From Eledone cirrhosa (Eukaryota), in NCBI GenBank assembly GCA_964016885.1, contig OZ024748.1, positions 44,888,001-44,952,000 of the forward strand: 64,000 nt of DNA, read 5' to 3'. Below the pieces are notes generated by a model, which made no database searches, was not told the DNA's origin, and saw only the letters and a program-made list of their open reading frames with translations. Positions 14,226-34,410 of this stretch are shown here, one piece after another; positions within the stretch are counted from its first letter, which is position 1, and each line of letters opens with the position of its first letter. The position numbers and the translations under genes are program-made.

Positions 14226-14414
14226 AACAAAGGAATTGTGGTAAGGAACCAGATGGACCATAACGCACCAGAATACTCAATACTTAGGGTAGTAGAGTGG
14301 GAAATAGGAAAAAGCATGACCCCGACGGCAGAGCGCAAGCCGTTTCGACGGCTATTTCAGAAATAGCTGTCGAAACGGCTTGAGCTCTGCCGTCGGGGTC
14401 ATACTTATTCCTAT
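14226..14414. mobile_element. Foldback half-hammerhead element
   Basis: ~55-bp-arm hairpin 14302-14414 plus ~75-bp tail, inserted in (TA)n. Confidence 0.8.
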
Positions 14415-14579
14415 ATAAATATATATATATATATATATATATAAATATATATTTAAAGGTTAAACAAGGTTCAATGAATAAAGTTTTACAATAGATTAGA
14501 AGCACTCCACAGTGTTGGTTTTCACTGCCGTGACTGAATTTTAACCATCTACTTAGTCAGGTTATGTCATGCATCATCT

Positions 14580-14646
14580 TATTTTATCTGATGAGGACGT
14601 ACTGTTGAAAATAACTCAGTACCTCTGAAATATGTATAATAAAATA
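14580..14646 (+). ncRNA. Type I hammerhead ribozyme
   Basis: TATTTTAT-CTGATGA-GGACGTACTG..CAGTACCTCT-GAAA-TATGTA-TA-ATAAAATA. Confidence 0.8.
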
Positions 14647-14726
14647 TACTTGATCACACGAACGTCTATTTTTGTTAATATTTTGAATTAATATATATAT
14701 ATATATATATATATATATATATATAT

Positions 14727-15409
14727 ATATGTGTAAGTATGTATGTATGTATAAGTACATACATATATGTATACAGACGTACAGTAGTATGTATATATAT
14801 ACATACATGCACACATATATATATGCACATACCGGTTTACCGAACATTTATTATAATGCTCGGTTTGCCGTTTGTAAACAAACAAACAGCCAGAATTACG
14901 CCGTACAGTGTTTAGGCAACCACGTCACCTTTTTGTTCAACACTGACACAGGAATGATGTATTAGTTTCAAGCTTATTAGCTATCGTCAGCATCGTATAC
15001 CTTCCTGCCAGATGGTTGAAAGTCTGAAAGTATATACTTTCCTTATGTATATTAACGGCTGAGCAGCCTAAATTGCATATCGAGTGAGTTCAGTCGGCCG
15101 GGCACACCGAAAACGATAAATGGAATAGAATGAAACGAAATTTCATTTCTCACTCCTTGTACGGCACTTACTTAAATGTAAGTATGTATGTATGTATAAG
15201 TACTTACATATATGTATACAGACGTACAGTAGTATGTATATATATACATACATGCACACATATATATATGCATGTATCGGTTTACCGAACATTTATTATA
15301 ATGCTCGGTGTGTTTGTAAACAAACAAACAGCCCGAATTACGCCGTACAGTGTTTAGGCAACCACGTCACCTTTTTGTTCAACACTGACACACGATCGAT
15401 GTACTAGTT
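14727..15409 (-). mobile_element. Retrozyme/pLTR-like 1.5-mer (~450-nt unit)
   Basis: ~235-bp direct repeats 14727-14966 / ~15175-15409; minus-strand HHR at 14956-14994; the second repeat ends at the stem III/cleavage-site sequence. Confidence 0.7.
14956..14994 (-). ncRNA. Minimal type I hammerhead ribozyme
   Basis: Minus strand reads GATG-CTGACGA-TAGCTAATAAGCTT-GAAA-CTAA-TA-CATC. The sister repeat has the palindromic ACTAGT stem III. Confidence 0.68.
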
Positions 15410-15412
15410 ATT

Positions 15413-32910: not shown

Positions 32911-33039
32911 GTACCAGCAGCGGAAGTCCCAAGCCGTAAATGAGTTGTAGTATGTCTATAACGCGTACATGTATATATATATATGTATATGTATATGTAT
33001 ATGCATGTATATATGTATATGTATGCATGTATATATATA

Positions 33040-33753
33040 TATAGGTTTGTTTTTATTGATTTATTATTTTAAATCGAGATAGGCAAACCGTATTATTTTA
33101 ATTAGTATTTTTCAATCTAGCTAACTTGGTCATTTGCAATGCAAACACATGTATACTTGTATCAGTGTTTATCCCTATCAGATATTCATTTGTATTACAC
33201 GGCTCAGAAATATTCCTTTCTTTGAGCTATTTAATTGTAAAAAACTATTTGAGTTTATAACTCTATATATAATATTCTCGGCTCCATGCGTTGAGCTAAT
33301 TTTTAGTCCCATAAAATCGGCTGCTATTTTTAGCGACACGAGTATAGGACGTGCTAGACACTGTGACACATGTGCGTTTAACAACACATTTCTCTCAGTC
33401 TTCCTAAGTATTTTGAAGTGAAACTTACCAATTTCTGGATACCTGCAGAAGAGCACAGGAATAGGAAATTTCACTTAATTGTTGCGAAACAAATTTAAAA
33501 TTTGTCCAGGTATCACGGCTATTGCCAATATAGGTCTGTTTTTATTGATTTATTATTTTAAATCGAGACAGGCAAACCGTATTATTTTAATTAGTATTTT
33601 TCAATCTAGCTAACTTGGTCATTTGCAATGCAAACACATGTATACTTGTATCAGTGTTTATCCCTATCATATATTCATTTGTATTACACGGCTCAGAAAT
33701 ATTCCTTTCTTTGAGCTATTTAATTGTAAAAAACTATTTGAGTTTATAACTCT
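33040..33753 (+). mobile_element. Retrozyme/pLTR-like 1.5-mer (489-nt unit)
   Basis: Direct repeats 33040-33265 / 33529-33753; HHR at 33438-33514; flanked by (TA)n and (TC)n. Confidence 0.72.
33438..33514 (+). ncRNA. Type I hammerhead with U4-to-A core variant
   Basis: GATACCTG-CAGAAGA-GCACAG..TTGTTGC-GAAA-CAAATTTAAAATTTG-TC-CAGGTATC; perfect 8-bp stem I, 6-bp stem III, GUC site. Confidence 0.72.
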
Positions 33754-34025
33754 CTCTCTCTCTCTCACTCTCTCTCCCTCTCTCTCTCTCTCTCTCTCCC
33801 CTCTCTCTCTCTCTCTCTCTCTCTCTCTCTCTCTCTCTCTCTCTCTCTATATATATATATATATATATATATATATATATATATATATATATATATACAT
33901 CGCTATTTCAGAGCATCAATTCTAATTTTCAATTATTGCTGGTGGACCAGCAATCGCTCTGTATAATCAGTTCCTGATTATTACTGGAATTCTATAAGAA
34001 TCCAACATTTATAATTATCACTAGA

Positions 34026-34102
34026 CGAAGGGAAGTGTTAAGCTCTGATGAATACCAACAGCAACAGTATGAAACAGAGATCTGTCAGCTTATCTCCCTT
34101 TC
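34026..34102 (+). ncRNA. Canonical full-length type I hammerhead ribozyme
   Basis: TAAGCT-CTGATGA-ATAC-(11-nt loop)-GTAT-GAAA-CAG-AGAT-CTG-TC-AGCTTA. Distal stem I AAGGGA/TCCCTT with an internal bulge; predicted cleavage after C34086. Confidence 0.88.
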
Positions 34103-34216
34103 TTTGTTGAAAAAAAAGTGACATAGTCACTACTTTAAAACAATAGCGTAAGGTCTTCAAAATGCTTTTAATTAATATATATACATTCATATATATATAT
34201 ATATATATATATATAT

Positions 34217-34410
34217 GGGAAAATCTATGACCCCGACGACAGAGCTCAAGCCGTTTCGACGGCTATTTCTTGTGTCCAGAAATAGCCGTCGAAACGGCTT
34301 GAGCTCTGCCGTCGAGGTCATACATTTTCCTATTACCCACTCTACTACCCTAGGTATTGAGTACTCTGGTGCGTTATGGTCCATCTGGTTCCTTACCACA
34401 ACTCCGTTTT
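34217..34410 (+). mobile_element. Foldback half-hammerhead element
   Basis: Hairpin 34217-34331 plus tail to 34410, in (TA)n. Confidence 0.8.

Follow-up and report, generated by a model that had tools for sequence, protein, structure and literature searches.

Half-ribozyme hairpins in the genome of Eledone cirrhosa are probably the shortest inverted insertions of a Hydra-like PLE

Three features of PLE retrotransposons relevant to this work are already known: the layout in which an inverted copy is accompanied by a tail, the presence of hammerhead ribozymes in the terminal repeats (pLTRs), and the U3-A8 variant of the hammerhead core, which occurs naturally and has been reported to be active (PMC3088659). 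What the hammerheads do for PLEs has been called unclear, and the origin of the tandem and inverted structures has been left undefined (PMC8557442). The purified protein of Poseidon PAc, a PLE of the green anole, has been shown in vitro to nick both strands and to extend them from two start sites, and its predicted form is a dimer (PMC11167929); no model for inverted arms was found in the part of that study available to us. For the Cercyon PLEs of Schistosoma, cleavage of tandem precursors has been proposed (PMC4209133), and non-LTR retrozymes are described as tandem short units that each contain a complete type I hammerhead (10.64898/2026.07.22.740005). A literature search that covered mainly open-access papers did not turn up any account of genomic run-off at the cleavage site of a PLE, of transcription starting within loop II, or of PLE insertions joined from two primers, and nothing on the hairpin family described below was found in the accessible part of the O. 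vulgaris repeat paper (PMC13282606).

The stretch of DNA that we analysed (hereafter the window) comprises 64,000 nucleotides of contig OZ024748.1 of E. cirrhosa. An earlier note on this stretch had pointed to five related pieces, all of which are present, each embedded in (TA)n (table 1). Three of them (14226-14414, 26105-26299 and 34215-34410) consist of a tail, an arm, a junction and an inverted tail-less arm, and both the arm motif and the differences between the loops of individual copies had been described correctly. In our numbering, +1 is the A of an Inr-like AGTCC in loop II of the hammerhead; on this scale the predicted scissile bond of the half-ribozyme at 34281-34318, as mapped to the folds of the parent element, lies between 34313 and 34314 (+41/+42). 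The copy at 28262 has a shortened tail arm and a complete partner, and two of the window copies belong to subfamily A. The variant at 26187-26297, taken in the earlier note to be private to one copy, is in fact a subfamily marker that recurs at other loci (L028, L037, L051 and L090) as well as in long copies of the parent (L162, L166 and L169). The 5' half of the hammerhead is missing from all five pieces, so that none of the short copies in the window has a complete core. The hairpin family is far more abundant than chance would allow, with tens of thousands of insertions in a genome of 3.0 Gb: pattern searches found 42,813 exact tail motifs and 13,504 exact short hairpins genome-wide, with 0 matches to the reversed-pattern controls for either, and the 11 family loci in 60 evenly spaced 10-kb stretches correspond to about 55,000 genome-wide (27,000-98,000).

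Table 1. Pieces of the hairpin family and a related large insertion in the window (positions are those of the window; signed numbers refer to the parent unit).
Feature	Positions	Strand	Remark
Large inverted insertion from a different PLE family, only one arm with a tail	4109..6986	.	
Tail-only stub, +59 to +139 of parent unit	11764..11844	-	98.8% identity to positions 59-144 of the array monomer
Tail-bearing arm, +7 to +139 (hammerhead 3' half and tail), subfamily A	14226..14358	-	
Tail-less arm, +5 to +61, in opposite orientation to the tail-bearing arm	14358..14414	+	
Tail-bearing arm reaching exactly +1, TTAAAC subfamily	26105..26243	-	
Tail-less arm, about +6 to +61	26243..26299	+	
Tail-less arm, +1 to +61, without mirror in its partner	28262..28322	-	
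Tail fragment ending at +89, linked with the 28262 arm by a 5-nt overlap	28318..28367	+	
Tail-less arm, about +6 to +61	34215..34270	-	
Tail-bearing arm, +2 to about +139, subfamily A	34274..34410	+	
Hammerhead 3' half: stem II 3' strand, GAAA, stem III, GUC, stem I 3' strand	34281..34318	+	mapped to parent folds

The hairpins can be linked to a full-length element. A genome pattern derived from a few matches of a CUGANGA search that shared an upstream extension showed 3,185 arms running upstream into a 3' UTR and an RT-EN frame, and 355 tails read through downstream into a 5' UTR and the start of the ORF. The parent does exist and is a 3.53-kb PLE with RT, GIY-YIG and Hydra-clade motifs that forms young head-to-tail arrays, with units of 3.53-3.54 kb and open 716-aa ORFs; two adjacent array monomers show 0 differences over 3,531 nt. 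The single ORF combines RT with a C-terminal GIY-YIG domain and contains YRDD and a VIY..YIG region. In Pfam it gave a weak GIY-YIG match (E=0.069), with no match for the whole protein, and a PDB sequence search gave none. As in EN+ PLEs, the pLTRs are organized in tandem, and inverted 5'-truncated copies carry a tail at one end. The protein has RWR at residue 36, DKT at 116, CxCX5C at 571, CxxC at 669 and CxH at 697, that is, the motif set of the Hydra clade (DKT, CxCX5C linker, CxxC/CxH and an RWK-like motif). Endonucleases of the Hydra clade are without a CCHH motif; in the GIY-YIG core of the parent, one cysteine was seen by eye. On the published description of the Hydra-clade motifs, the label Neptune was dropped.

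The parent also holds the half of the ribozyme that the hairpins lack, in the order ACCCC, UUGANAA core, 5' strand of stem II, 33-nt loop and then the arm. The 5' half, UUGANAA, is a U3-A8 variant, which is why searches for CUGANGA fail: the CUGANGA parent postulated earlier did not materialize, as 43, 55 and 7 matches to three genome patterns included 0 intact ribozymes. The seven matches lie in an unrelated LINE-like frame and do not represent a parent. All elements of a type I hammerhead (three stems, the 3-8 pair, UGA, A9, GAAA and UH) are found in the parent only, and the arm is the 3' half of such a hammerhead in a PLE pLTR, as the earlier note had recognized. Among 28 strictly parsed parents, the core is U3-A8 in 22, C3/A8 in five and U3/G8 in one, and the canonical C3-G8 of the Hydra clade in none; core position 7 can be A, C, G or U. 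Since its hammerhead departs from the canonical form, we label the parent, by its motifs, only as Hydra-like and do not file it as a member of the Hydra clade. The three-stem fold is the unconstrained MFE structure in six of eight folded parents, with L161 and L311 partly differing. Both strands of stem II are changed together in subfamily C, with TTAGT in the loop mostly kept; covariation overall is thin, amounting to 4 pairs, a count that 87 of 500 shuffles also reach, and the pair adjoining G10.1-C11.1 is unpaired in 24 of 27 sequences. Rfam found no hammerhead in the window or in the parent. The parents with the C3/A8 mismatch (L215, L311, L312, L315 and L171) are mostly of one subfamily and are predicted to be poor cutters. 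Six further loci (L238, L327-L329, L335 and L340) combine a stem II 5' strand of subfamily C with a 3' strand of subfamily A, possibly as recombinants or intermediates.

The anatomy of the insertions was established from 93 of them, parsed from the first 96 tail matches in the first 15 Mb of contig C1. The 3' ends are fixed: the tail arm ends at +139 and the partner at +61/62 in 68 of the 78 cases called. The 5' ends fall between -5 and +10 in 46/93 tail arms and 56/77 partners; no partner was found in 16/93 insertions. The same inverted layout is kept at all lengths. Long arms pair with long arms, and lengths form a continuum up to full length, the lengths of the two arms being independent. 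In long copies the tail-less arm is often the only one to carry the ORF (L188, L189 and L191); the idea that it is generally the longer one did not hold, since it is longer in 8 copies, shorter in 5 and of equal length in 2 (hand count). Arms of the same copy differ by a median of 3 per 51 nt (43 copies), against 8 between copies. Rare layouts have tails on both arms (L227 and L266) or on neither (L197).

We conclude, with a probability of roughly 0.78, that the 3.5-kb PLE left the hairpins as its shortest inverted insertions, each made of two cDNAs that were primed on opposite strands of (TA)n and joined head to head. The earlier note favoured a single cDNA snapping back on its own stem II hairpin and copying itself, in which case unequal arms would be due to later deletions. 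Arms within a copy are mostly of the same subfamily, as this would have it, and palindrome centres are unstable. Yet snap-back predicts that the 33-nt loop II is kept and that the arms are mirror-symmetric, whereas loop II is retained in 0 of the first 50 hairpins, of which 7 are zero-spacer perfect palindromes and 3 have A/T runs (hand count). Moreover, in 17/93 insertions the partner contains sequence for which the tail arm offers no template, with the opposite seen in 5 (L219, at least, among the copies with unequal arms is an internal deletion), the tail-less arm of long copies often has the ORF to itself, and some arms are joined head to head to the arm of a different hammerhead-bearing PLE family (the chimeras L032, L040, L046 and L049). 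We therefore consider snap-back very unlikely.

Even less probable, in our view, is that the roughly 190-bp hairpin propagates itself as a non-autonomous unit, MITE- or retrozyme-like, from few masters. Such a unit would readily explain the very high copy number and the uniform size, and short tandem derivatives do exist. Against it speak the variety of junctions, about 34 different ones in the first 50 hairpins, with five recurring in both subfamilies (hand count), and the length continuum to full-length copies. The junctions lie in loop II, as noted earlier, and arms do not cluster by side in the 93-insertion sample (8.2 and 8.5 against 8.4 differences). A side-specific variant in about 14 of the best 30 BLAST matches came from the query, the unbiased sample being without side clustering. 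Instead of the terminal inverted repeats and single master of a MITE, the insertions have the tail at one end and an arm end at the other; as opposed to non-LTR retrozymes, the stubs are inverted and hold half ribozymes. Independent arms, about 34 junctions and the loss of loop II together argue against both snap-back and a MITE master and for two joined cDNAs. The reading of the pieces as the 3' half of a hammerhead in minimal PLE insertions, and not as a MITE, has stood; CUGANGA, snap-back and a free-standing split family have not. The short tandem units are found at L292/L293 (G000:C1:27009489-27010048; 257 bp) and at G000:C1375:42582-43100 (about 246 bp). They begin near +1 or -5 and are possible retrozyme-like derivatives; the 257-bp units, too, are without the hammerhead 5' half.

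The 5' ends of the arms pile up at two places. The first is +1, where 724 arms of subfamily B start, against 56 at -5 under equally strict filters. Position -3, with 1,685 matches, exceeds +1, owing to T runs reaching -3 or beyond, and was replaced by -5 as a control because these runs made it uninformative. T-run arms reaching -3 may reflect either added A's or a start at -3..-1, so that, unless A's were added, the start maps only to -3..+1. A G stands just before +1 in 66 of the first 100 matches, compared with 18/45 purines at -5 (p=0.004, hand count). A copied cap is expected from work on LINEs to leave an extra G at the end, and the excess is what it would give. Thirty read-through loci include four that have an inverted arm next to them and start at about -2..+7, and four with joins at -2..+1 in direct orientation (L292/3, L296, L297 and L299); the latter show that the boundary is not a matter of deletion at palindrome centres. 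The site itself reads TTAGT or TCAGT, which we take to be initiator-like; no match to a Drosophila-type DPE was seen by eye at +28..+32. A splice acceptor at +1/+2 was also considered and rejected, as the junctions show no common upstream exon sequence. We infer that Pol II transcription begins, with a capped end, at -3..+1, within loop II of the hammerhead of the upstream unit. Such a start would leave the 5' ribozyme copy of the RNA without its 5' half and explain the missing CUGANGA half; the split is thus likely a product of transcription start in loop II, and not the mark of a free-standing split-ribozyme family.

The second pile-up is at +42, exactly where the hammerhead is predicted to cut (GUC/G, after the GUC at +41). 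Exact starts at +42 number 534 in subfamily B. The first 100 comprise 23 cases of slippage or indel, 27 mirror joins with one extra A/T, 6 of tail microhomology and 44 remaining; since the control patterns exclude mirror joins with an extra A/T, these were removed from the count. About 230 are left after filtering, against scaled controls of about 21 (+39), 40 (+41), 30 (+43) and 30 (+46). Inspection of 30 loci confirmed 27 true junctions, 18 of them with a partner ending at +42/43, two joined directly to (TA)n and one to the interior of the ORF; L354, L369, L363 and L317 are unpaired or direct joins. The excess is weaker in subfamily A (about 60 against 21, filtered), where an extra G accounts for 68 of the first 100 matches. 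The simplest reading of +42 is run-off from the uncapped product of self-cleavage by a complete U3-A8 hammerhead, which suggests that the ribozyme cuts in living cells. The same two-cDNA mechanism could operate with +42 being a stall of the reverse transcriptase or a second start site: the position is just 3' of the stem III hairpin, at a G run, and the Poseidon PAc study, as far as its available text goes, found no RNA reads ending at the hammerhead site (PMC11167929). A stall at the hairpin base would be expected at +40/+41, however, and one at stem I at +46/47, whereas few ends fall at +39, +41, +43 or +46, the peak spans a single base and coincides with the predicted bond, and an extra G occurs in few of the +42 matches (3-7/83). 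A stall or second start appears to us rather unlikely. We see an even chance that the arm ends are a fossil map of RNA 5' ends in the full sense, such that the PLE hammerhead cuts in vivo and the cut RNAs are copied, a promoter in loop II yields a split 5' ribozyme, and one RNA is primed twice, on opposite strands of the target, with head-to-head joining of the products.

On the preferred two-cDNA reading, the enzyme would nick both strands of a (TA)n target, and priming would occur at +61 and +139 of the pLTR on opposite target strands; the junctions at both positions share TAT with the target. Each cDNA would be copied to the 5' end of the RNA, and the cDNA 3' ends would then be joined head to head through microhomology, the addition of A's or short jumps between templates. 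If priming takes place in the 5' pLTR copy, it would give a run-off of roughly 135 nt and a 190-bp stub, and priming in the 3' pLTR copy would give long inverted insertions such as L188 and L189 or, in another family, that at 4109-6986. Both cDNAs would usually stem from one RNA or one RNP, since arms match within a copy and +42 ends are so often paired with +42/43. In a number of insertions the two arms differ in subfamily or in end class (L230, L278 and L281; L352, L355 and L364); one RNA cannot easily give such pairs, and two RNAs are used sometimes.

The large insertion at 4109-6986, as the earlier note proposed, shares the layout of the hairpins; its arms are 1,116 nt long and 99.4% identical. 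Its EN fragment is 34% identical to that of the parent, and it has canonical CUGAUGA motifs at 4297(-) and 6886(+). Other hammerhead-like CUGAUGA motifs in the window are at 8040(+), 14588(+), 23474(+), 28532(-) and 34045(+). All of these belong to other repeat families; several are near (TA)n, and they are candidates for the counting of ends. A broken fragment at 12340-13205, with 29-42% identity to the protein of the parent, represents another PLE family. The window further contains a tandem array of a 24-bp unit (15414-20232; about 200 copies, 96% matches) and a satellite array of a 75-bp unit (41448-64000; about 300 copies, about 94% matches).

A family so young and abundant allows the start of the RNA, the site of the cut and both sites of priming to be predicted to the single base, which makes the function of a PLE hammerhead directly testable, and counting of ends can be applied to any PLE-rich genome. 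The family also serves as a warning that a hairpin in (TA)n that looks like a MITE may be the stub of a retrotransposon, whose ribozyme searches for CUGANGA will miss.

Of the systems described so far, the Hydra clade, as presented in the text available to us, resembles the parent in the order of RT and GIY-YIG, in DKT, the CxCX5C linker, CxxC and CxH, and in the (TA)n target, the pLTR hammerhead and the 5'-truncated inverted copy that is tailed at one end (PMC8557442). The same source gives units generally under 3 kb (here 3.53 kb), RWK instead of RWR, tails of 30-40 nt (here about 78 nt) and a canonical hammerhead, compared with U3-A8 and a long stem II in the parent. Poseidon PAc matches our model in its two RT start sites, with a spacing equal to the tail, and in its AT-rich target (PMC11167929). 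Cleavage was dispensable there in vitro and RNA reads ending at the hammerhead site were lacking, whereas here genomic copies end at that very site. The Cercyon hammerheads of Schistosoma share the U3-A8 core variant with the parent and, as a further likeness, occur in pairs, one on each strand with 100-700 bp between them, which have been attributed to truncated PLEs (PMC4209133). These are minimal motifs that need dimers, whereas the parent has a stem III of 5-6 bp and is predicted to fold as a monomer, and the stubs, unlike them, hold half a ribozyme. In Penelope of Drosophila virilis, too, the pLTR contains an internal promoter of the Inr type (PMC2377424); its start lies upstream of an intron ending at helix I, in contrast to the putative start inside loop II proposed here. 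Finally, Penelope of D. virilis and the PLEs of Adineta vaga show an inverted pLTR, a tail and short palindromes at the 5' junction (PMC2377424, PMC3846280), in likeness to the hairpins of E. cirrhosa.
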